From UHGV virus genome UHGV-1560991: 11,913 nt of DNA; one strand, written 5' to 3'. Positions 2,776 through 11,913 of this stretch are shown piece after piece. Numbering within the stretch: position 1 is the first letter of the stretch; every line of letters starts with the position of its first letter. The DNA is from a virus. A program made the translations under genes and the position numbers. The notes under the pieces are model-generated. The model made no database searches. It saw only the letters and a list, made by a program, of their open reading frames with translations, and had not been told where the DNA came from.

Positions 2776-3202
2776 ATCAATGACTCCGTACGCAATTAAA
2801 TTATTACCAATTTAACCACATATGATTTATTTATCGTAGATAGTTGACATTTACCGCACAAATTATTACCTTTTGGGTAACCAAAGAGTTCATTCCGGTT
2901 ACTAACCTGACTGGCTTGTCGTTAAATTGAACAGGTGGAGTGAGCTTTTATTTTGAGCAGTACGGCGTATGGCACATGCGCCGATAGCGGTCTGGATACG
3001 TTTAAGGGGCACCCTCCCTTGCTCGGGAAAACGAACCAGGTAGCCGGAATGTGCAAGTCGAGCGGTTTTATTCCGCGCACGGGGATTCACCATCCCGGCG
3101 ATTCGGTGTGACGCCTCGGAAGAGACGAGGGTACAACGATGAGAGCATTTATGGAGCCGCGACAAAGTGTGGCGCCTTAACAGGCTAAGTGCTCTCAGCG
3201 TT

Positions 3203-3279
3203 GTGGCATTAGCTCAGCTGGACAGAGCAACTGCCTTCTAAGCGGTTGGTCGCAGGTTCGAATCCTGCATGCCACGCCA
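3203..3279 (+). tRNA. tRNA-Arg (anticodon UCU), argU-like
   Basis: 77-nt cloverleaf read by hand: acceptor GTGGCAT/ATGCCAC, D-stem GCTC/GAGC, anticodon stem ACTGC/GCGGT (one G-U pair), loop CTTCTAA giving anticodon TCT, T-arm GCAGG-TTCGAAT-CCTGC, discriminator G, encoded CCA. Close to E. coli argU as I remember it. Confidence 0.9.
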
Positions 3280-3477: not shown

Positions 3478-3858
3478 ATGAACGACCAGCAAATCGAAAA
3501 AGAAATCGTTGAGAAAGGTAAAACCGCTCCGCGAATCACCCCGCAGCACATCGAAGACGTGATTAAAAGCGAGCATTACTTTACTGCTTATGATGGACGA
3601 AATGGTGCCATTTCCAGCAACGAATATTGTGGCAGGGAAAAACCAGAAGAAGGCGATCGTGATTTATCACCATTGAAGTTGCTCACTTTCTGCGTACTGG
3701 TGCTGAAGAATGGCTTCACCGTCACCGGAGAGAGTTCCTGTGCAAGCCCGGAAAACTTTGATGCAGAAATTGGTCGGAAGATTGCCCGGCAGAATGCTGT
3801 AAACAAAATCTGGATGCTTGAAGGTTACTTGCTGAAGCAGAAGTTAAGCGAGCAATAA
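3478..3858 (+). CDS. Small plus-strand phage accessory protein (126 aa), possibly Gp49-like family
   Basis: Clean ORF with AAGGTGAG 5 nt upstream of the ATG. It is transcribed opposite to the flanking terminase and portal genes and is followed by a hairpin terminator. The family guess is a weak recollection. Confidence 0.6.
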   Translation: MNDQQIEKEIVEKGKTAPRITPQHIEDVIKSEHYFTAYDGRNGAISSNEYCGREKPEEGDRDLSPLKLLTFCVLVLKNGFTVTGESSCASPENFDAEIGRKIARQNAVNKIWMLEGYLLKQKLSEQ

Positions 3859-3948: not shown

Positions 3949-5424
3949 TTAAGCATAGGGATCGTAATCTGTGATGGCCTTGCCTTGCTGGTTCTGCTGC
4001 CCGGGAATTCGCAGACGCTTCGACACAGGGAACGCAAACGTCAGCAGTAGCGCATCGCCTTTACCCGGCGAACGCCCAAGCCGCTCCTTGATATCTTCCT
4101 TCGGTTCAATAACGATTTTACCGTCCACTCGAACTTTGTACTCTGCCGCCGACAGGTCGTCTGCTGTTTCCTGGTCATCAAGCATGCCGCCCAGCCTCAG
4201 CCATGTCTTACATGAGTTGAACATCTCCCCACGCTTGTTGAGCATCTGCGGGTCAGTAGACGCGCCACCGAATGGAACAAGTTGCCATGTACGTCCCCAG
4301 CCATCACCGATTGACTTCAAACCGGTTCCGTAACCGAAGTCGATGAACACCGCGTCAGCCTGGTACTGGTCTTCAAAGTCAGCGATACGCTTCGCCATAA
4401 TCAGATCGTCGGTGGTCTTGTTGCCGGTCCACAGCACCTTACTGTGCAGCCCCTGCCGCAGGTATATCACCGCTTCATCAACACCGGAGTATGCAGGGTC
4501 AACGCCGATTATCACCGGAGCATGTGCCACCTGCGCAGCAGTTACCACCCGTTTCATTGCCTCGTCAGTAAGACCGGTAGGGATAAACTGCAATTCAGAT
4601 GCATCAGGGAATATGCCGCGCACACGGATTTTAACGAAGTCGCTGTCTTCCCCGTAGTCATCAACCCATTTCTGCAACTGCTGTTTGTTAGTGCCTTCCA
4701 CCGTCCGGCTGTCAATCTGCGCAGTTTTCCAGCGGTGTTTATATTTGCGGAAACATTCGCGGAAACGACCGGTATTACGCGTCGGGTTTCCGAACGCCAC
4801 CCAGATGATTTCGGTGTCTTCGTCCGTCAGCGCACCCTCTGCTACCTCCCACACCAGATCGGCAATGTTGGATGCTTCGTCGAATACCACGATGATGCGT
4901 TTGCGCTCGTTGTGTAGTCCAGCGAATGCCTCAGTGTTGTGCTCAGACCAAGGGATTGCGTCAGCTCGCCACCGCTTGTCGTGCCCAGGATCATTGCTGT
5001 ACATCGCGGTAGCGGTACAGGTAAACCAGTCTTTCGTGATAGCAAGGTTCGACCACTTGATAATTTCCGGCCAGGTCTTCGTTCGTAGCTGGTTGTCGGT
5101 GTTGGCGGTCACCACGACCTTACAATCCTCGCAAGTGGACATGCCCCAGTTGATCAACATTGAGATGAATGCTGATTTACCAATACCGTGACCCGAAGCA
5201 CGTGCCAGCATAAGCGGCTGATAGCGCGTCTCGGGATTCTGCAGGTGATCACGTATCTCTCGGAACGCATCGGCCTGCCACTGACGTGGGCCGGTAGCAT
5301 GTGCCAGTTCAGTCCCCTCTTCCCCCCAAGGGAACGCATAGAGGGCATAGCCAAGCGGATCGTGAGTGAACCCTGCAATATCCTCGATCAACTGCTCTTC
5401 AGGAGATAACGCTGTATTTGTCAC
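3949..5424 (-). CDS. Terminase large subunit
   Basis: 491-aa ORF with a Walker-A-like ARASGHGIGKS motif near the N-terminus, acidic motifs consistent with an ATPase plus nuclease domain, and a start overlapping the stop of the upstream small-subunit gene (5421/5424). Confidence 0.85.
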   Translation of the reverse strand: MTNTALSPEEQLIEDIAGFTHDPLGYALYAFPWGEEGTELAHATGPRQWQADAFREIRDHLQNPETRYQPLMLARASGHGIGKSAFISMLINWGMSTCEDCKVVVTANTDNQLRTKTWPEIIKWSNLAITKDWFTCTATAMYSNDPGHDKRWRADAIPWSEHNTEAFAGLHNERKRIIVVFDEASNIADLVWEVAEGALTDEDTEIIWVAFGNPTRNTGRFRECFRKYKHRWKTAQIDSRTVEGTNKQQLQKWVDDYGEDSDFVKIRVRGIFPDASELQFIPTGLTDEAMKRVVTAAQVAHAPVIIGVDPAYSGVDEAVIYLRQGLHSKVLWTGNKTTDDLIMAKRIADFEDQYQADAVFIDFGYGTGLKSIGDGWGRTWQLVPFGGASTDPQMLNKRGEMFNSCKTWLRLGGMLDDQETADDLSAAEYKVRVDGKIVIEPKEDIKERLGRSPGKGDALLLTFAFPVSKRLRIPGQQNQQGKAITDYDPYA

Positions 5425-6017
5425 TGATTACCATCCTGACGTTCTTTGAGTCGCTTCCTGGCTGCTGCTATGCGATCAGCAATTGTCACATTCACATTAA
5501 CATCCAGACGTTCTTTGAACGCGTTGACATCAACATGCTTACCAATCAGCTCAAGGTTCTTCACCTTGTCAGGCCATTTAATTTTTTTGAGGATTGTCTC
5601 TATCGAATCCTCGTTCATGTTCATGATGGTCGATGACAGATCAAAGCCACTAAGCGTAGTGCGCCAGATTTTCGGCCACTCACGGATTGGTTTAAGGCTC
5701 CCATCGTCGTTGAGGATGTCGATCACGTCCATCTGGTCGATCTCCACCAGGCGCATGAGAACGTAATCAGCACTGACGCGCATTCGTTTGTTGCGCTCCT
5801 CCATCAACTCGGCAATCCGTTTTTGAATGCGTTCATCGCGCATCATGACACTGGCTTTAACTGCCGCTGTATTTGGGGAGAATCCTGCGTTAATCGCTGC
5901 CTGAGTCTGGTTCTCAGGCGTTTTGATGTATGACTGGCAATAAGCCTCCTGCATTGCTGTGAGCGGCTTAAATTGCGTTGATTTGCGTTTATAGGTTTTA
6001 GGTTCAGCAGGCATCAT
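5421..6017 (-). CDS. Terminase small subunit
   Basis: ORF directly upstream of and overlapping the large subunit, with a basic N-terminal region (MMPAEPKTYKRKSTQFKPLTAMQEAYCQSY) typical of terminase small subunits. Start set at the internal Met pair (6017/6014) because the longer track ORF (to 6095) would run through a terminator hairpin at 6061..6086. Confidence 0.75.
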   Translation of the reverse strand: MMPAEPKTYKRKSTQFKPLTAMQEAYCQSYIKTPENQTQAAINAGFSPNTAAVKASVMMRDERIQKRIAELMEERNKRMRVSADYVLMRLVEIDQMDVIDILNDDGSLKPIREWPKIWRTTLSGFDLSSTIMNMNEDSIETILKKIKWPDKVKNLELIGKHVDVNAFKERLDVNVNVTIADRIAAARKRLKERQDGNQ

Positions 6018-6060
6018 AACCACCGTGGTAATAGTTACCGTTGTGGTGATAGTACCATGC

Positions 6061-6086
6061 AAAATAAAGCCGCCATAGTTGGCGGC
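6061..6086 (-). terminator. Rho-independent terminator-like hairpin upstream of the packaging operon
   Basis: On the minus strand: GCCGCCA-ACTA-TGGCGGC (7-bp stem) followed by TTTATTTT, beginning 6 nt after the stop of the 6092..6325 gene. Confidence 0.45.
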
Positions 6087-6091
6087 AGTAT

Positions 6092-6325
6092 TCAAAGTCC
6101 ATCAAATTCATCGTAAAAACTCTCGTCAAGATACCCTTCCCATTTACCGCGAATGAAAATTACATCCTCGCCGCAAGGGTGCTGACTGTCGATAACTATA
6201 TCCCTCCTGGCGCAACCATACTTATGCATGAGAAATTTAACCTCTTTCGGAAAATTTGCTGAGTTATCTCTCATATCTTCAAGGTCGTAGCGTATTTTTG
6301 GCATAACACATCCGTGACATGTCAC
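6092..6325 (-). CDS. Hypothetical small protein (77 aa as in ORF track; alternative start MPKIRYD at 6304 gives 70 aa)
   Basis: ORF between the 113-aa gene and the terminator. No family recognised. The 6325 start lies inside a perfect 12-bp palindrome, so the internal Met may be the true start. Confidence 0.5.
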   Translation of the reverse strand: MTCHGCVMPKIRYDLEDMRDNSANFPKEVKFLMHKYGCARRDIVIDSQHPCGEDVIFIRGKWEGYLDESFYDEFDGL

Positions 6326-6326
6326 A
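6312..6326. repeat. 15-bp element CCGTGACATGTCACA containing the perfect palindrome GTGACATGTCAC (copy 2)
   Basis: Exact 15-mer shared with 3861..3875. Lies at the 3' end of the 113-aa gene and the 5' end of the 77-aa gene. Both copies are preceded by ATAACAC and followed within about 30 bp by GCCAGCC. Confidence 0.5.
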
Positions 6327-6663
6327 CTATTAATTTCGTTTCATGCCAGCCTTTGGTCACCCAGCATTGCGAGTCACCATTACACGGGCATGAATTCACA
6401 GGAACTCTCTCGCCGCACTTACCGCAACGTTTTCTGCTGATCGATTTTATACGCCCGCGCACGCGTGCATCATCCTGGCGGATCAGTAACGCTATATACT
6501 CACCAAATTCGTAAGGCGCACGCCCGGGGCGACGTGTGGCACAGTTACGCTCCAGCATTTCAATTTCCTGAGCATCAAGCACAATCTCCAGCTTACGTAC
6601 ACCGGATTCAGCTTGTCTGGCTCTCTGAGCGGCTTTGCGCTCTGCTGCTGATTTAGCCATCAA
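6322..6663 (-). CDS. Hypothetical protein with an N-terminal ribbon-helix-helix-like region and a C-terminal Cys-rich (zinc-ribbon-like) region
   Basis: The N-terminal segment (ERKAAQRARQAESGVRKLEIVLDAQEIEMLERNCATRR) resembles the small LexA-regulated CopG/RHH-type protein YbfE as I recall it. The C-terminus carries CGKCGERVPVNSCPCNGDSQC. Overlaps the upstream gene by about 11 nt. Confidence 0.5.
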   Translation of the reverse strand: MMAKSAAERKAAQRARQAESGVRKLEIVLDAQEIEMLERNCATRRPGRAPYEFGEYIALLIRQDDARVRGRIKSISRKRCGKCGERVPVNSCPCNGDSQCWVTKGWHETKLIV

Positions 6664-6934
6664 TATTTACCTTTATCGCGAACACCTTTACCGGTTTATC
6701 GCCGAAGTGCGGATGTGTGATTGTCTTGATTTCATATCCGTCATACGGAACATCAATTCTGCGACTGAAATCGTCGCGCTTCGGATATCCCTTTGTGATA
6801 ACCAGGCGGCCATACTCGCGGAACATAATTCGCTTATTCCAGTAGTCATTACACAGGCGATACTCTTCCGTTTTCTGCCCGCGAATCATGGCATCGAAGT
6901 ATTCACCTTTGACGGCAAGTTGCAGGTTAGCCAC
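6653..6934 (-). CDS. ASCH-domain protein (about 94 aa from a GTG start)
   Basis: Contains the ASCH-type GxKxxExR signature (IRGQKTEEYRL). Proposed GTG start at 6934..6932 has AGGAGG 6 nt upstream and removes most of the overlap with the upstream gene. The ORF track's ATG at 7015 would overlap that gene by about 88 nt. Confidence 0.6.
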   Translation of the reverse strand: MANLQLAVKGEYFDAMIRGQKTEEYRLCNDYWNKRIMFREYGRLVITKGYPKRDDFSRRIDVPYDGYEIKTITHPHFGDKPVKVFAIKVNIDG

Positions 6935-7577
6935 GGTTAACCTCCTGCGGCGGTTCCGGTAGCGGCATCCAGTGAGTTGCTTGCTCAATACCATTACCCG
7001 GCTTAATCGTTGCATCTCCGCGCCGAAAGGTGCTTCCGGTATAGCGTGCGGAGCATATTAGCGGTTCAACCAGAGAGCTATCGAAATTCACCGAAATAAG
7101 CACGTTCTGGCCCTTTTCCGGCATTCGCTCACTACAGCTTATCCAACCATCCGGAGTTACCGGATAGTTGCCGGGTTCTTTAATGTGCAAGCGAGGCTCA
7201 CCATCTTTTGGCTCAGGCCACTGGCGCTCCATGTTGATCTTCAATTTATCTTCCATAGCAGCGGTAATTTCAGCATCGCTGATGCCAGCACGGCGCTGTG
7301 CATCCCACAACAGAAACTGCATATCAGCCCACTCGCTAAGATCGTCTGGTTCGGCTGCGGCTTCCAGTGCCTCTTTTGAGAGATGTTTCAGCGGACCAAT
7401 GGGGCCAACGCAGCCAAATGTGGAGTCAGACCATTTGGCATGCTCGTGGCGAATCAGTTCGCGTTCCAGTGATGCCAGTGCAATTCGTGCCAGTTCCATT
7501 TGTTCGCCACGAGTAAGCCCGTTTTCAAGCGGATTTTTAATGAACAATTCAATACGTTCTTTGGTAATAGTGGTCAT
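6927..7577 (-). CDS. DUF550/DUF551-type phage protein (N-terminal region possibly of the dATP/dGTP pyrophosphohydrolase-associated family)
   Basis: 216-aa ORF with AAGGA upstream of the ATG. The C-terminal THWMPLPEPP motif is the characteristic DUF551 signature. The N-terminal half is assigned to DUF550 by recollection only. Confidence 0.7.
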   Translation of the reverse strand: MTTITKERIELFIKNPLENGLTRGEQMELARIALASLERELIRHEHAKWSDSTFGCVGPIGPLKHLSKEALEAAAEPDDLSEWADMQFLLWDAQRRAGISDAEITAAMEDKLKINMERQWPEPKDGEPRLHIKEPGNYPVTPDGWISCSERMPEKGQNVLISVNFDSSLVEPLICSARYTGSTFRRGDATIKPGNGIEQATHWMPLPEPPQEVNRG

Positions 7578-7587
7578 TTGTTAGTCC

Positions 7588-8343
7588 TTAAACTGCTAGT
7601 TGCAATTGCATTTCAAAGCGGTCGCGTTGTTCACAATACGCAAGAGAACCAGGGCTATTGTGTGCCTCAATCCGTTCTACCATTAATGCTGCGCGTGTCT
7701 CTTTACTTGCAGGTGCATAAGCCCCAGACCAGGCTTTATCAATACCGATGTTTCGAGCGACGTTCGTACTATCTGCGCTGGCTAAGGGTAATTTTGTGAA
7801 TATCAGCGGATTTAACATGCGCAATCCATGTAGTTTCGTAACCGGCTGACCATGCCCATCAACAATGTGACGAATCAGGTCTTTCATTCTGGCTACCGCA
7901 AGAGTTGGGCGCTTTACGTCATAGTCGCCACAACTACCGATAGCCACTCGCGGAAACTCATTGCACAAATGAATAAATCGCGCGTCACTTTCATTCATGT
8001 GCCACACTGGAACGCCAGCTAGTTTTCCGTGAGGCCACTCATTCAGAAGCGCATCATTTTCCTCCTCTCCGCCATCAATAATATCCGGGATAATGGCAAA
8101 ATCGAATCCTGGGTGATTCTTCCAGCGAGCAACAAACTCGTAGTAATCGCTCCAGTCGATTTTGTTTTTGCCAGCTGCTTTCCAGGCGGTGAATGCACCG
8201 TTGTCCAGCGCGAACGACTGACAGTATTCAGCCGCGAGATTGATCTGGCCTGAATGCGCAAAACTGATAAACGCATGTCGCCCTTTCCATGCTCTCATTG
8301 CGCACGTATCAGGAGTAATAGGCCCACCGTGGTAGTGAATCAT
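7588..8343 (-). CDS. tRNA-guanine transglycosylase (TGT) superfamily protein, DpdA-like (candidate DNA 7-deazaguanine transglycosylase)
   Basis: By-eye alignment to E. coli Tgt motifs as I remember them: LDNGAF vs TDSGGFQ, FAIIPDIID vs IVMIFDECT, AIGSCGDY vs AVGGLAVGE, LHGLRML vs LMGVGKP, ASADSTNVARN vs FDCVMPTRNARN (nucleophile Asp region). No C-terminal CxCxxC...H zinc motif. Start placed at MIHYHGG (8343), which has AAGGAGAG upstream and sits 1 nt after the Ea22-like stop. The track's longer ORF starts at 8376. Confidence 0.55.
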   Translation of the reverse strand: MIHYHGGPITPDTCAMRAWKGRHAFISFAHSGQINLAAEYCQSFALDNGAFTAWKAAGKNKIDWSDYYEFVARWKNHPGFDFAIIPDIIDGGEEENDALLNEWPHGKLAGVPVWHMNESDARFIHLCNEFPRVAIGSCGDYDVKRPTLAVARMKDLIRHIVDGHGQPVTKLHGLRMLNPLIFTKLPLASADSTNVARNIGIDKAWSGAYAPASKETRAALMVERIEAHNSPGSLAYCEQRDRFEMQLQLAV

Positions 8344-8344
8344 C

Positions 8345-8896
8345 TCACTCTCCTTTGATGCGAATGCCTGTTGCAATGCTGTTTATGATGCTGTCAGTGC
8401 ATGGGGTAGAAAGCTGGGCATCTCCAGCAATTCTCATGACCTCAACATCTGCATATCGAATACCGAGGTGTATCAGACCGGCTATACCTGACTTAAGCCG
8501 AGCATTTTCCATAAACAGATCCTTTGCACGCTGTTTTTCTGCCTCAAGCTCAACGCGCAACTTCCCTACCGTTAACGCAATATCCTCGTTCTCTTGGTCG
8601 CGGCGTTTGATGTATTGCTGGTTTCTTTCCCGTTCATCCAGCAGTGCCAGCACGGTAGCCGGATTGGCTGCGGCGATGAATTCAGCATTGGCCTGCTGTT
8701 CTATTTGGAAATCTTCATCGAAACCGCTTTCAGGATGCGCTCCTTCAATTCTGCAAATGGGAATATATCCAGCAGCCTCGCGATGAATTAGCGCATCATC
8801 ACCATCAAATCGGCCCTCTCCATATTCGAGCGACCACTCGCCACACGTTGCTTTTTCTGCCTTAGCACGCAGTGCCTGATAATCAATCTTGCTCAC
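8345..8896 (-). CDS. Ead/Ea22-like family protein
   Basis: The N-terminus MSKIDYQALRAKAEKATCGEWSL is the characteristic Ea22-like opening, followed by a coiled-coil-like central region. Start overlaps the upstream stop (8893/8896). Confidence 0.75.
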   Translation of the reverse strand: MSKIDYQALRAKAEKATCGEWSLEYGEGRFDGDDALIHREAAGYIPICRIEGAHPESGFDEDFQIEQQANAEFIAAANPATVLALLDERERNQQYIKRRDQENEDIALTVGKLRVELEAEKQRAKDLFMENARLKSGIAGLIHLGIRYADVEVMRIAGDAQLSTPCTDSIINSIATGIRIKGE

Positions 8897-9588
8897 TGGA
8901 TGACTCCTTTACGAAGCTGTTCAGCGATATCTTCGAGAACGCCATCAGAGAATGAGCGGTCAAAATCGCCTTCCGGCGCATTAGCCATAAACTCAGTAGA
9001 GGTAAGAATCATCCGGGCAATATCAGCGGCGTTCTTCGCAGTATCATCAATAAAACCAGCTTCCCAGGCAGCCAGCATTCTGTTCGCCACAAAGTAAGCG
9101 CCCTCCTTGCGTGCTTCAGTCTTCACTTCAGCCAGGAAATCATCGGTGGCTGGGTGTTCTGTCTGGCTATGCATTACCCATTCAGATAAGTACTCGAAGC
9201 AACGGCGAAACTCCTGCCAATCACTGCACATGTTTAGGTTTCCGCCTTCACACTCGAACTGGTAATTCTCTAAACGGTCTGCAAACGCTCTGCCATTCTC
9301 GATGGCACCAAGTGGAGCTTCAGACTTCAGCCCAGCATTCTCCGCCGCCAACGCCGAAAACTTCTCGTGTGCCAACTTAACAGCCGCATCAGCCTGCTTA
9401 ATTGACTCAATCGCTTTCTGGTGGTCTTCGGACAGCGCATTAGCACGCACCAGTTGCACTTCCAGTTGCGTTGCCAAATCGCTGATCAGCTTTGCCACAC
9501 TGCGCATATCAACGGCACCACATTCAGCTTTCAGTTCCGAAGCCATCTCATGCCCGGCGGCAACTAACTCTTTGATATTACTTTCCAT
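8893..9588 (-). CDS. Hypothetical phage protein (231 aa) with an N-terminal coiled-coil-like region
   Basis: Long clean ORF, translationally coupled to the Ea22-like gene. No family recognised. Confidence 0.65.
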   Translation of the reverse strand: MESNIKELVAAGHEMASELKAECGAVDMRSVAKLISDLATQLEVQLVRANALSEDHQKAIESIKQADAAVKLAHEKFSALAAENAGLKSEAPLGAIENGRAFADRLENYQFECEGGNLNMCSDWQEFRRCFEYLSEWVMHSQTEHPATDDFLAEVKTEARKEGAYFVANRMLAAWEAGFIDDTAKNAADIARMILTSTEFMANAPEGDFDRSFSDGVLEDIAEQLRKGVIQ

Positions 9589-9649
9589 CTTTACCCTCGC
9601 TTATCCACATAACTTATTGATTACATTGATAACTAAAAAGATCGTCGAT

Positions 9650-9994
9650 TCAGAACTCTTCGATGTTCCAGCCACCACCTGCTTTCTTTGGTTTAACCGT
9701 TACCCCGATGATTCGGAACGGATACTGATCTGCGGCGACTTTGGTTTTCACTCTGGCGTCGTCGGTCCAGAAACCTTTCACTTCGTGCAGTTCCATCTCG
9801 CCGGTGGCGAGCATCACAGCAAAATCGGGCGTATAGAACGTGTTGTCAGCTAACCGAAGCTTGATACCCTCAAATCGATACCAGACGATTTCTCCTGCAC
9901 GTTTACGCAGCTCAAGGTGCTGGCAATACGCAGATTCTGTTTTGTTCATCTGGCCTGTTTTGAGTCGACCAAGAGCCTGTATCTGTTTTCTCAT
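9650..9994 (-). CDS. DUF1064-family protein (small PD-(D/E)XK-like phage protein)
   Basis: 114-aa ORF with YTPDF...ELHEVKG spacing reminiscent of a D...E-x-K nuclease-like core. This family is common in lambdoid nin-type regions. GAGGGA lies upstream of the ATG. Confidence 0.75.
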   Translation of the reverse strand: MRKQIQALGRLKTGQMNKTESAYCQHLELRKRAGEIVWYRFEGIKLRLADNTFYTPDFAVMLATGEMELHEVKGFWTDDARVKTKVAADQYPFRIIGVTVKPKKAGGGWNIEEF

Positions 9995-10011
9995 GATTTC
10001 CCTCTGAGGTA

Positions 10012-10040
10012 ATTAAAAACCACATAAGACATGAAATCAA
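10012..10040 (-). promoter_or_regulatory. Candidate sigma70-type promoter for the DUF1064 operon
   Basis: On the minus strand: TTGATT, a 17-nt spacer, then TTTAAT, about 17 nt upstream of the DUF1064 start. A short GCGC-GATA-GCGC hairpin plus T7 run lies downstream of the P-like gene in the same gap. Confidence 0.3.
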
Positions 10041-10111
10041 TAGAAATTAGAACATTTTATTACCTAAAAGGTAATCATGTAGGCGTAAAAAAATGCGCTA
10101 TCGCGCTGGTA

Positions 10112-10912
10112 TTACTTGATAAATCCTGCCGCCTTTCCCCGCCTGTATTCCTCCATCAGCCACTGCGCCGGTGTTATTCCCCCCAGGGTGGCGGCGTTAG
10201 GCATGCACCCGAAACTTCGCCCTGGCGGGTGGTAAACGTCTCTCCCTGTGTCCGGAGGCGTACTCATGGGTTCTGGCTTTGCCTGTATGCTGATCACCGG
10301 ATCGGGTATCTGCTGTCCGGAAGCCACCTTTTTCGCCCAATCATCGAGCAGCCTGCGCGCGTGTTTCTCAACCTCAATCTCGCTAAGCTGGCGCTGATAC
10401 ATTGCACGGCGGGTGTCACATACAACCCAGTACATAACCGGATGCCGCCACGGGAATCTTTCGGGACCACCAGGATATAAACTTTTTTCCTTGCTGTACC
10501 GGTGAAACTCCGCCATCACATCGTCAATGGTGACGCCAAGAACCATCTTGCTGTCTTTACACCACTTGATGAATTGCCCTGGCGACGGCCAGAACGGAGA
10601 TTCACTGGCGCGGGCGTGGCGCATACCAGCAGAAACCTGTTCACGGGTTCGGATCCCCCCTTCGGCAAACGCAGCAATCCACTGCTGTTTTGCAGCAGCT
10701 TCCTGCTCTGGCGTCTTCAGGTTGGTTACCACTGCCGCTGGAAACAGTTGTTTCAGCTGTTTGAAAAGGGCATCAACAAGCCTCTCTGCTGACATGTTCA
10801 CCACGTTGTCATTGTTGGTGTACTGATGCTCATAACCTGACATGCGAGAAAGGGCTTCTCCGTCACGGTTTTGTATCGCGGTAAAAACGTTGTTCACAAG
10901 AAATCCTCCCAT
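10112..10912 (-). CDS. Replication protein P-like (DnaB helicase loader, lambda P family)
   Basis: Collinear similarity to lambda P as I recall it: GIRTREQVSAGMRHARASESPFWPSPGQFIKWC vs GITTMEQVNAGMRVARRQNRPFLPSPGQFVAWC, plus an earlier LFPA vs TFPA match. Alternative GTG start at 10897 has GGAGGA 6 nt upstream and forms a GTGA overlap with the O-like stop. Confidence 0.85.
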   Translation of the reverse strand: MGGFLVNNVFTAIQNRDGEALSRMSGYEHQYTNNDNVVNMSAERLVDALFKQLKQLFPAAVVTNLKTPEQEAAAKQQWIAAFAEGGIRTREQVSAGMRHARASESPFWPSPGQFIKWCKDSKMVLGVTIDDVMAEFHRYSKEKSLYPGGPERFPWRHPVMYWVVCDTRRAMYQRQLSEIEVEKHARRLLDDWAKKVASGQQIPDPVISIQAKPEPMSTPPDTGRDVYHPPGRSFGCMPNAATLGGITPAQWLMEEYRRGKAAGFIK

Positions 10913-11733
10913 GCTTCAGGGCTGTTCCAGTGCGGAACGTTGTTATCAGGTAATGTTGATTGCTTCTGTCTGCTAATCTGCAGCCGCCTTGCCAGCTTCT
11001 GCTCCCACTGTGCCTGATGGTATGCCTTACCCTCAGCCATCCAGTAAATTCTGAACTCTGCAAGTTCCTGTGCCGTTGGCAGACTGTCCAGGTAGATCCC
11101 CTGCAATGAGCTTTTCCGAAGAAAGTCATCTGATGGCTGCCATTGTTCATGCATGACAAATTTGCCTAATTGCCCTGGCCCACCAGGAGGAACAAAGTTA
11201 TTCATCACGGCGTTGTTTGCGCCGGGGTCATGAGGCACAGAATCCCCGGTTTTTGTCCTGCTCTCCCTCTCTTGGTTAAATGACTGGTTATATGACTGGT
11301 TCTGGATCCCGTTTTTGGGATCATTCAACATCCCGTTTTTGGGATCATTCAACATCCCGTTTTTGGGATCATTCAACATCTCGTTTTTGGGTATATTCCC
11401 GTTTTCGGGAACATTACCGTTTTCGGGTTCATTACACCCATCTAGGTTGCCTTTAATGTTCCCTTTTTTGGTTATATTAAGAGAGAAAACCCGCACTCTT
11501 TTCGTCGCTCCCTTTCTCTCTCCGGTATCTGAAATAAGCCCCATTTTCATGAGCGATATAAGCCCGGCCTGTACGGTTTTTTTATTCAGGCAAGTGTCTT
11601 TAACGAGGCGTTCTATGCTGGGGTAGCAGAGGTTATATTCATCGGCTCTGTCAGCCATCGAGAGCAGTATGAGCTTTAATGACGAGCTACCTGGATCTGT
11701 CTCCCAGGCCCAATCTGTTGCATGTCTGCTCAT
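10894..11733 (-). CDS. Replication initiator O-like protein (N-terminal HTH DNA-binding domain, internal iteron-encoded repeats)
   Basis: 279-aa ORF immediately upstream of the P-like gene. The coding sequence contains tandem iteron-like DNA repeats that translate to PKNGMLND three times. The N-terminal region looks like a helix-turn-helix domain. Confidence 0.8.
   Translation of the reverse strand: MSRHATDWAWETDPGSSSLKLILLSMADRADEYNLCYPSIERLVKDTCLNKKTVQAGLISLMKMGLISDTGERKGATKRVRVFSLNITKKGNIKGNLDGCNEPENGNVPENGNIPKNEMLNDPKNGMLNDPKNGMLNDPKNGIQNQSYNQSFNQERESRTKTGDSVPHDPGANNAVMNNFVPPGGPGQLGKFVMHEQWQPSDDFLRKSSLQGIYLDSLPTAQELAEFRIYWMAEGKAYHQAQWEQKLARRLQISRQKQSTLPDNNVPHWNSPEAWEDFL
11303..11435. repeat. 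Iteron array (putative phage origin of replication) inside the O-like gene
   Basis: Two exact 24-bp tandem units CATCCCGTTTTTGGGATCATTCAA (11329..11352, 11353..11376), a near-copy ending at 11328 and a degenerate fourth unit at 11377..11400, then two CCGTTTTCGGG units about 19 bp apart. Each unit has TCCC...GGGA dyad symmetry, like the lambda ori iteron TCCCTCAAAACGAGGGA. Confidence 0.75.
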
Positions 11734-11748
11734 GATTAATCTCCGCTA

Positions 11749-11913
11749 TCAGCTTGAATGTTGTGGGGAGGAATTAATCATGATCTGCTTAATCTCTGCC
11801 CTGATGCGACGGTTTGATTCCATGGTGCACTCAACACAGTGTCCGTTGTAAACCCAGCGTTCACTGTCATGTCCGTGCTTACCCAGATCGGGCGATGTGA
11901 TGAGACAGAGATC
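11749..11913 (-). CDS. Partial ORF (C-terminal 54 codons) of the gene upstream of O, possible Cys/His-containing regulator
   Basis: Minus-strand frame open from the window edge to a TGA at 11751..11749. Translation is ...CLITSPDLGKHGHDSERWVYNGHCVECTMESNRRIRAEIKQIM.... No family recognised. The overlapping plus-strand ORF (11669..11851) looks less protein-like. Confidence 0.3.
   Translation of the reverse strand, partial: DLCLITSPDLGKHGHDSERWVYNGHCVECTMESNRRIRAEIKQIMINSSPQHSS

Follow-up and report, generated by a model that had tools for sequence, protein, structure and literature searches.

The 11,913 nucleotide (nt) stretch of virus genome UHGV-1560991 analysed here, hereafter the window, carries on its minus strand a coding sequence (CDS) of 756 nt at 7588–8343 (start codon ATG 8343–8341, stop codon TAA 7590–7588). 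The encoded protein of 251 amino acids (aa) is of the phage DpdA type and belongs to the singleton group, in which phages encode DpdA only. The original prediction had placed it in the tRNA-guanine transglycosylase (TGT) superfamily as DpdA-like, and this assignment is supported by a profile match to the DpdA of phage CAjan, by BLASTP matches to the DpdA proteins of Salmonella phage 7-11 and Pantoea phage MED16, and by invariant aspartates. By analogy with such relatives, the gene product probably swaps a low level of DNA guanine for a 7-deazaguanine base made by the host. What the analysis establishes is the homology of the protein, its fold and conserved residues, the place of its gene in an operon, and that precursor genes are missing both from the window and from the annotation of a closely related prophage. 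From these we infer that DNA is the substrate, and likewise which base is inserted, at what level and to what benefit for the phage.

The protein matches PHROG 887 ('queuine tRNA-ribosyltransferase') with E=2.6e-101. In hhalign, the family profile matches CAjan DpdA at 97.4% (E=1.3e-11) and a broader profile does so at 98.6% (E=8.4e-16) over 169 columns with 25% identity. The segments paired, with the window protein given first, are LDNGAF/LDSGAF, VWH/CFH, AIGS/TIGG, KLHGL/KLHAF and SADS/SCDS. By BLASTP, the DpdA of phage 7-11 is 35% identical (E=8e-32) and that of MED16 is 39% identical (E=2e-43), so that homology to experimentally validated phage DpdA proteins is significant in both types of search. 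Matches in BFVD are phage proteins named queuine tRNA-ribosyltransferase, among them the DpdA of Dinoroseobacter phage R5C, with E values of 1e-9 to 1e-7.

Searches of the more general collections were blank. No relevant match was found for the single protein in Pfam, NCBIfam (E≤10), PADLOC or the PDB sequences, nor for a 47-sequence profile against PDB and Pfam. The profile search that the original prediction had called for is therefore blank in Pfam, but significant against PHROG 887 and the CAjan DpdA profile. The blanks in Pfam, PDB and PADLOC say little against the family assignment, because Pfam and PDB sequence searches likewise miss the validated CAjan DpdA, which the PADLOC DpdA model barely finds (E=1.3e-3). 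When viral contigs were scanned with CAjan DpdA, near-identical copies alone came back, with no gain for widening of the profile.

Six motifs are found along the protein in the order LDNGAF (D47), IIPDII (D87), VWHM (H115), AIGSCG (G136), KLHGLRML (H172) and ASADSTNVARN (D191). All of the TGT-like motifs that had been predicted, including the nucleophile region ADSTNVARN, are thus present and in the order claimed, and E. coli Tgt does read GIDMFDCVMPTRNARN, as had been quoted for comparison. The six residues are invariant in 146 homologues, with identity down to 45%, and are 97–99% conserved in 336 sequences with identity down to ~34%. Across the 146 homologues 27 columns are invariant, every candidate active-site residue being among them. 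A MAFFT alignment of the window protein with the homologues from SPN3UB, Epa33, DMCA, 7-11 and CAjan leaves D47, G49, A50, F51, D87, H115, G136, H172, S189, D191 and S192 invariant.

TGT and bacterial DpdA act by double displacement, in which a nucleophilic Asp becomes covalently linked in a ribosyl intermediate and a second Asp is the general acid/base (PMC10164549). In these enzymes a third Asp and a His read the base, and Ala at either catalytic Asp abolishes exchange (PMC10164549). Asp47 (LDNGAF; codon 8203–8205, on the minus strand as are all codons given here) is the candidate general acid/base. It pairs with the Asp of FLDSGAF in CAjan DpdA and is the candidate counterpart of Asp95 of Salmonella DpdA and of the Asp in the TDSGGFQ motif of Tgt. 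Asp87 (IIPDII; 8083–8085), just after strand E80–84 of the structural model, is the candidate base-recognition Asp and by motif order would correspond to Asp130 of Salmonella DpdA. His115 (VWHM; 7999–8001) is at the C-terminal end of a barrel strand, pairs with the His of CFHF in CAjan and is a candidate for the role of His181 in Salmonella DpdA. His172 (KLHGLRML; 7828–7830) pairs with the His of KLHAFG in CAjan DpdA and may hydrogen-bond the nucleophile, as in the H226/D248 catalytic pair of Cap10 (preprint 10.1101/2025.04.06.647259). The candidate nucleophile itself is Asp191 (ASADSTN, strand E189–192; 7771–7773), which pairs with the Asp of SCDSS in CAjan and is the putative counterpart of Asp256 of Salmonella DpdA and of the Asp in the MFDCVMPTRNARN motif of E. 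coli Tgt. The three candidate active-site aspartates, D47, D87 and D191, are therefore all invariant in the 146 homologues, and D47 and D191 are paired with an Asp of CAjan by hhalign. In the TGT of Z. mobilis, Asp102, Asp156 and Asp280 hold the positions of Asp95, Asp130 and Asp256 of Salmonella DpdA. Since all of the positions needed for the mechanism have invariant counterparts, an active transglycosylase is the natural reading of the sequence.

The AlphaFold2 model, made from the 146 sequences, is an (alpha/beta) barrel with pLDDT 89.7 and pTM 0.87, and has the (beta/alpha)8 arrangement of TGT; a model from 26 close homologues (pLDDT 54.6) was discarded. Foldseek against the PDB gave generic TIM-barrel matches only (E≥3e-3), in which TGT was interspersed with tryptophan synthase and pyruvate kinase, and was not discriminating. 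The best structural match is Cap10 of type IV CBASS. This raises the question of whether the protein acts on a protein-linked or other non-nucleic-acid deazaguanine, for example as a counter-measure of the phage that intercepts deazaguanylated defence proteins, and the invariant H172/D191 pair does resemble the catalytic H226/D248 of Cap10. However, the Z margin of Cap10 over the bacterial DpdA structure 7UI4 is only 0.6, PADLOC gives no match, and the homologues for which there are direct experimental data are DNA modifiers. Nor does the gene share an operon with genes for Cap9 (QueC-like) and for a CD-NTase, neither of which is found in the window or in the related prophage. A function of this type is therefore considered highly improbable. 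In the first two barrel strands of the model, His3, His5 and His23 (codons within 8275–8337) are 99–100% conserved in the 146-sequence alignment. Neither CAjan DpdA nor the homologue of phage 7-11 (VRVWGG) has these residues, which are specific to the clade.

The zinc motif separates the window protein from Tgt. It was predicted to lack the C-terminal zinc motif, and this holds; CxCxxC is missing, and D191 is followed by only 60 residues, among which no Cys or His is conserved, whereas E. coli Tgt has CDCYTC at 302–307. Such an absence is normal for phage DpdA, since the CAjan, MED16 and 7-11 proteins are also without the motif. The window protein is in addition ~125 residues shorter than Tgt (PF01702), to which it has no significant sequence or profile match, and neither the Pfam nor the NCBIfam TGT model finds it. 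These features bear on whether the gene could instead encode a minimal, RNA-acting TGT through which infection would change the queuosine status of the tRNA of host or phage. Databases do label the family 'queuine tRNA-ribosyltransferase', and the phage has a tRNA gene of its own. That tRNA is tRNA-Arg(UCU), however, and has no G34 target, and the missing zinc subdomain is the part of TGT that helps hold tRNA. The lack of a PF01702 match, the sequence similarity to the DNA-acting CAjan DpdA rather than to Tgt, and the activity of the phage 9g DpdA independently of host Tgt also make action on tRNA very unlikely.

Comparison with the DNA-modifying enzymes is closer. The DpdA1 of CAjan and 9g (Queuovirinae) has the D, D, H, H and D positions in common with the window protein. 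CAjan DpdA is longer (306 aa), with a longer C-terminus, and is encoded beside folE, queD, queC and queE, which do not accompany the gene of the window. It replaces ~32% of G with dPreQ0, and deletion of dpdA abolishes dPreQ0 in phage CAjan (PMC6884629). Bacterial DpdA, as in Salmonella Montevideo (PDB 7UI4), has 413 aa with an Ins8 insertion and a structural zinc site, neither of which is present in the window protein. Ins8 has 128 residues, and the bacterial enzyme needs the DpdB ATPase and is part of the dpdA-K island (PMC10164549). In the window there are just the 60 residues after the nucleophile, neither a DpdB partner nor dpdC-K neighbours, and no match to the PADLOC DpdA model; the neighbours are replication, Ead/Ea22, DUF550/551 and terminase genes.

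The gene is an already known case and an ordinary one. Hutinet et al. 2019 (PMC6884629) described a third group of 76 phages that encode DpdA only, and found that singleton DpdA proteins from phages of gamma-proteobacteria cluster separately. Supplementary Data 1 of that paper lists YP_007011024, which is gp54 of Salmonella phage SPN3UB, with the DpdA column alone filled, and does likewise for the homologues of SfI, HK106, BTP1, SEN1, PEAT2, SE131 and 7-11 (PMC6884629). SPN3UB gp54 is 92.4% identical to the window protein. Other homologues, as determined by tblastn against phage genomes (plus BLASTP for 7-11 and MED16), are in Pantoea phage AH07 (88%), Shigella phage SfI (67%), a set of Vibrio phages (60%) and Pseudomonas phage Epa33 (46%), with Salmonella phages SW9 and 7-11 and Pantoea phage MED16 at 35–39%. 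The novelty of an orphan DpdA was therefore overstated in the original prediction, the configuration having been published in 2019 with a 92%-identical protein in the list. The family, the missing precursor genes and the hypothesis of host pools were all published then and revisited in 2021 and 2023. In the literature after 2019, no paper was found that tested a temperate DpdA-only member.

The members around SPN3UB gp54 (SfI, HK106, BTP1, SEN1 and 7-11) resemble the window protein in their length of ~250 aa and in the absence of preQ0 genes, and in SPN3UB the gene is likewise positioned after the replication genes. Nothing essential differs, apart from the RefSeq name 'hypothetical protein' and the type of phage, which here is an epsilon15/phiV10-like prophage at guaA and not a lambda-like or P22-like phage. 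The DpdA proteins of MED16 and 7-11 conserve all motifs and, as here, these phages have no preQ0 genes of their own and infect enterobacterial hosts with the full Q pathway; the two are, however, virulent and of other lineages. The homologue of 7-11 (region 2914–3060) may begin further upstream than its annotated start (MIKALY...). Translation from an in-frame ATG 11 codons before that start (MEVRVWGGEG...) recovers the first barrel strand, which tblastn aligns in the sister phage SE131.

That no folE, queC, queD or queE gene is recognizable in the 11.9 kb is borne out, a Pfam scan of every sizeable open reading frame (ORF) having found no FolE-, QueC-, QueD- or QueE-like protein in the window. 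Precursor genes beyond the window, offered as one explanation, are unlikely because in the related complete prophage neither que nor folE genes are annotated between guaA and yfgI; it is likewise unlikely that genes for preQ0 synthesis are elsewhere in this phage genome. As in the published singletons, folE, queD, queE, queC and amidotransferase genes are absent, here from the window and from the annotation of that prophage. A second explanation offered, use of the preQ0/preQ1 pools of the host, matches that proposed in the literature for the DpdA-only phages (PMC6884629). The third, action on another substrate, is a less likely alternative. E. coli has the full queuosine pathway (PMC6884629). 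When the 9g DpdA is expressed alone in E. coli, plasmid DNA acquires dPreQ0 at 790 per 1e6 nt in the absence of host Tgt and of a DpdB-like partner (PMC6884629), which indicates that host pools suffice and that a DpdB partner is not needed. Two DpdA-only phages have modified DNA, with dADG at 50 per 1e6 nt (0.02% of G) in 7-11 (PMC6884629) and at 354 per 1e6 nt (0.13% of G) in MED16.

Under the favoured reading of DNA guanine exchange with a host base, transcription within a long early operon, spanning the replication genes and reaching the terminase genes, would cause the enzyme to be made while phage DNA is replicated. By analogy with TGT and DpdA, Asp191 would attack C1' of a target deoxyguanosine and displace the guanine, with Asp47 as general acid/base. 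Asp87 and His115 would read the base, Phe51 would stack on it and His172 would position the nucleophile. A base from the queuosine pathway of the host (FolE-QueD-QueE-QueC), either preQ0 or the ADG intermediate, would then resolve the covalent intermediate. Only a small part of the G would be expected to be modified, probably far less than 1% and in favoured sequence contexts, which could weaken certain restriction systems or other defences that sense DNA. A modification made after replication is consistent with expression of the gene from the early operon, directly behind the replication genes. The context is supportive in that the gene follows O-like and P-like replication genes, and in that distant homologues abut a QueD-like gene in Caulobacter phage DMCA or a C5 DNA methylase gene in Epa33.

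In DMCA the gene that abuts the homologue is small and QueD/PTPS-like (6705–7001), with no other preQ0 gene nearby. A QueD/PTPS-like gene (13607–13963) is also present in a Pseudomonas prophage contig, 5 kb from the homologue and beside an AlpA-like gene, again with no other preQ0 gene nearby; this one may belong to the host. In Epa33 (7001–9830) the 46%-identical homologue is followed immediately by a gene for a 696-aa C5 cytosine DNA methylase, so that it is in a DNA-modification neighbourhood.

Several points weigh against this reading. The DpdA-only relatives that have been chemically analysed lie outside the lambdoid, P22-like and epsilon15-like temperate clade, and the two found to be modified, 7-11 and MED16, are those at only 35–39% identity, with modification at the very low levels given above. 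The modification of MED16 had no visible effect on the restriction enzymes tried, the DNA still being cut. Both phages carry dADG rather than dPreQ0, which simple insertion of preQ0 does not explain, and the DpdA-only mycobacteriophage Orion has no modification (PMC6884629). The equivalences drawn with residues of TGT and bacterial DpdA rest on motif order and on the alignment with CAjan DpdA, not on superposition. In addition, hhalign comparison of the family profile with E. coli Tgt alone and with an alignment of 80 gamma-proteobacterial Tgt sequences was not significant, both profiles being low in diversity (Neff 2.2–4.7). The link to TGT proper is therefore through the fold, the motif order and published HHpred results for relatives; MED16 DpdA has a published HHpred match to Thermotoga maritima TGT at 99.2%. 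Given the low levels, the presence of dADG instead of dPreQ0 and the cleavage of MED16 DNA, statements on the base inserted here, its amount and its benefit are conditional throughout.

The dADG results also suggest another view, that the DpdA-only clade is not a simple inserter of preQ0. It could be specific for ADG or CDG or convert the base, or it could have a non-DNA substrate as Cap10 does. The former would explain dADG in both of the enterobacterial DpdA-only phages analysed, which have no DpdC-like gene. If either applied, H3, H5 and H23 at the mouth of the barrel would be part of a distinct substrate pocket. Taken together these two options are thought to be rather unlikely, and exchange of DNA guanine for a host base is retained as the best explanation.

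The window is part of a temperate phage of E. coli type. Its best matches over the whole length are E. coli prophages integrated beside guaA, at 97–98% identity over 83–86% of the window. One complete prophage was inspected, which extends from guaA to yfgI with genes from the integrase through lysis and matches 84% of the window at 97.8% identity. By its head genes and gene order, this prophage looks epsilon15/phiV10-like. A 99.9%-identical copy of the dpdA-like gene is present in a P22-like prophage, within the early-left ea region. Among 5,426 complete E. coli genomes, 405 have the gene. There are 415 records that match it, in only 201 of which at least 80% of the gene is covered, and 448 matching places, 30 of them on plasmids. 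Coverage is thus partial in about half of the records, and truncated or recombined copies therefore appear to be common. Among the matches listed, the RefSeq name of the product is 'hypothetical protein'.

This distribution is relevant to whether the fold and catalytic residues have been kept with little or no consequence in the host, the gene being a mosaic passenger that makes a trace modification and gives no measurable protection. It is located in highly mosaic accessory regions beside Ead/Ea22 and DUF550 genes, in two unrelated types of prophage, and about half of the matching E. coli records cover less than 80% of it. The 0.02–0.13% of G in the DpdA-only phages tested, the unaffected restriction enzymes in MED16 and the lack of modification in Orion are also as would be expected of a passenger. 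Against this, the 27 columns that are invariant in homologues of as little as 45% identity are evidence of strong purifying selection. The family is large, clustering of its sequences giving >7,000 clusters at 90% identity and 784 at 50%, and in the window the gene is intact and translationally coupled. A passenger gene is for these reasons judged unlikely.

The 251-aa ORF had been proposed at 7588–8343 and is a real gene; its ribosome-binding site is good and its translation is coupled to that of the preceding gene. The longest open frame in the ORF listing (7588–8376, minus strand) opens at a TTG. The biological start is nonetheless the ATG at 8343–8341 and not this TTG, because a Shine-Dalgarno sequence and the stop codon of the upstream gene adjoin the ATG, RefSeq calls the same CDS of 756 nt in E. 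coli prophages, and all homologues begin with MIHYHG. The Shine-Dalgarno sequence, AAGGAG (8350–8355, minus strand), was read directly 6 nt 5' of the ATG. The TGA stop codon of the Ead/Ea22-like gene (8347–8345) sits between the two, 1 base before the ATG, which indicates translational coupling to that gene.

The surrounding genes are also on the minus strand, and their families are from Pfam. Upstream, in order of transcription, are an O-like replication gene with HTH_36 and DnaT domains (10894–11733), a lambda P-like gene (10112–10912), a DUF1064 gene (9650–9994), an ORF of 231 aa without a significant Pfam family (8893–9588) and, in the same operon, the Ead/Ea22-like gene (8345–8896; PF13935, E=1.4e-34). 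The last of these is context only, a functional link to the DpdA-like gene being unsupported. Downstream is a gene in which a dATP/dGTP pyrophosphohydrolase (PF04447) is fused to DUF551 (6927–7577), then three small ORFs, the terminase small and large subunits and a T7-type portal. No Pfam match was found for the terminase large-subunit ORF, which is named from the RefSeq annotation of related prophages. Bbp19 and N4 gp49-family matches are further Pfam families among the window ORFs, the other sizeable ORFs being without a match. No sigma-70-like promoter match was found on either strand of 5400–11913 (6.5 kb), compared with 7.7 ± 2.5 in shuffled sequence. This places the DpdA-like gene within a long early operon that starts outside the window, and transcription seems to read through the replication, accessory and terminase genes as a single long operon.

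The downstream pyrophosphohydrolase was considered as a functional partner and rejected, the module being found in hundreds of lambdoid phages without the DpdA-like gene. Lambdoid phages carry the module far more often than the DpdA-like gene, so the linkage of the two is probably mosaic. Two related E. coli prophages (19871–19990 and 26473–26592) have a truncated DUF550 pseudogene that abuts the DpdA-like gene and is followed by a second, intact copy. Such an arrangement shows where recombination has joined pieces of the mosaic. The 3' end of the 6927–7577 gene is overlapped by 89 nt, in another frame, by an ORF of 120 aa (6653–7015, minus strand) that has no Pfam match; its true start is probably further downstream.

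Other features of the window are remote from the DpdA-like gene. The tRNA-Arg gene (anticodon UCU; 3203–3279, plus strand) is between the terminase large subunit and portal genes, on the opposite strand to them, and is followed by an N4 gp49/Sf6 gp66-family gene (3478–3858, plus strand). The O-like gene holds tandem repeats, of 24 bp x 3.6 at 11306–11391 (98% matches) and of 18 bp x 3 at 11382–11435, which encode the repeated peptide GMLNDPKN. These repeats are probably an iteron array of the phage origin.

As a discovery the gene therefore adds little, and its remaining value is practical. There is a gap in annotation, in that the Pfam, NCBIfam and PADLOC models miss a gene present in 405 of the 5,426 complete E. 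coli genomes. Now that defence systems directed specifically against 7-deazaguanine DNA are known, GrwAB among them, what the DpdA-only temperate phages do has gained in relevance. An inducible E. coli prophage would be a tractable system in which to determine what the temperate phages of this group insert into DNA, at which motifs, and against which defences.
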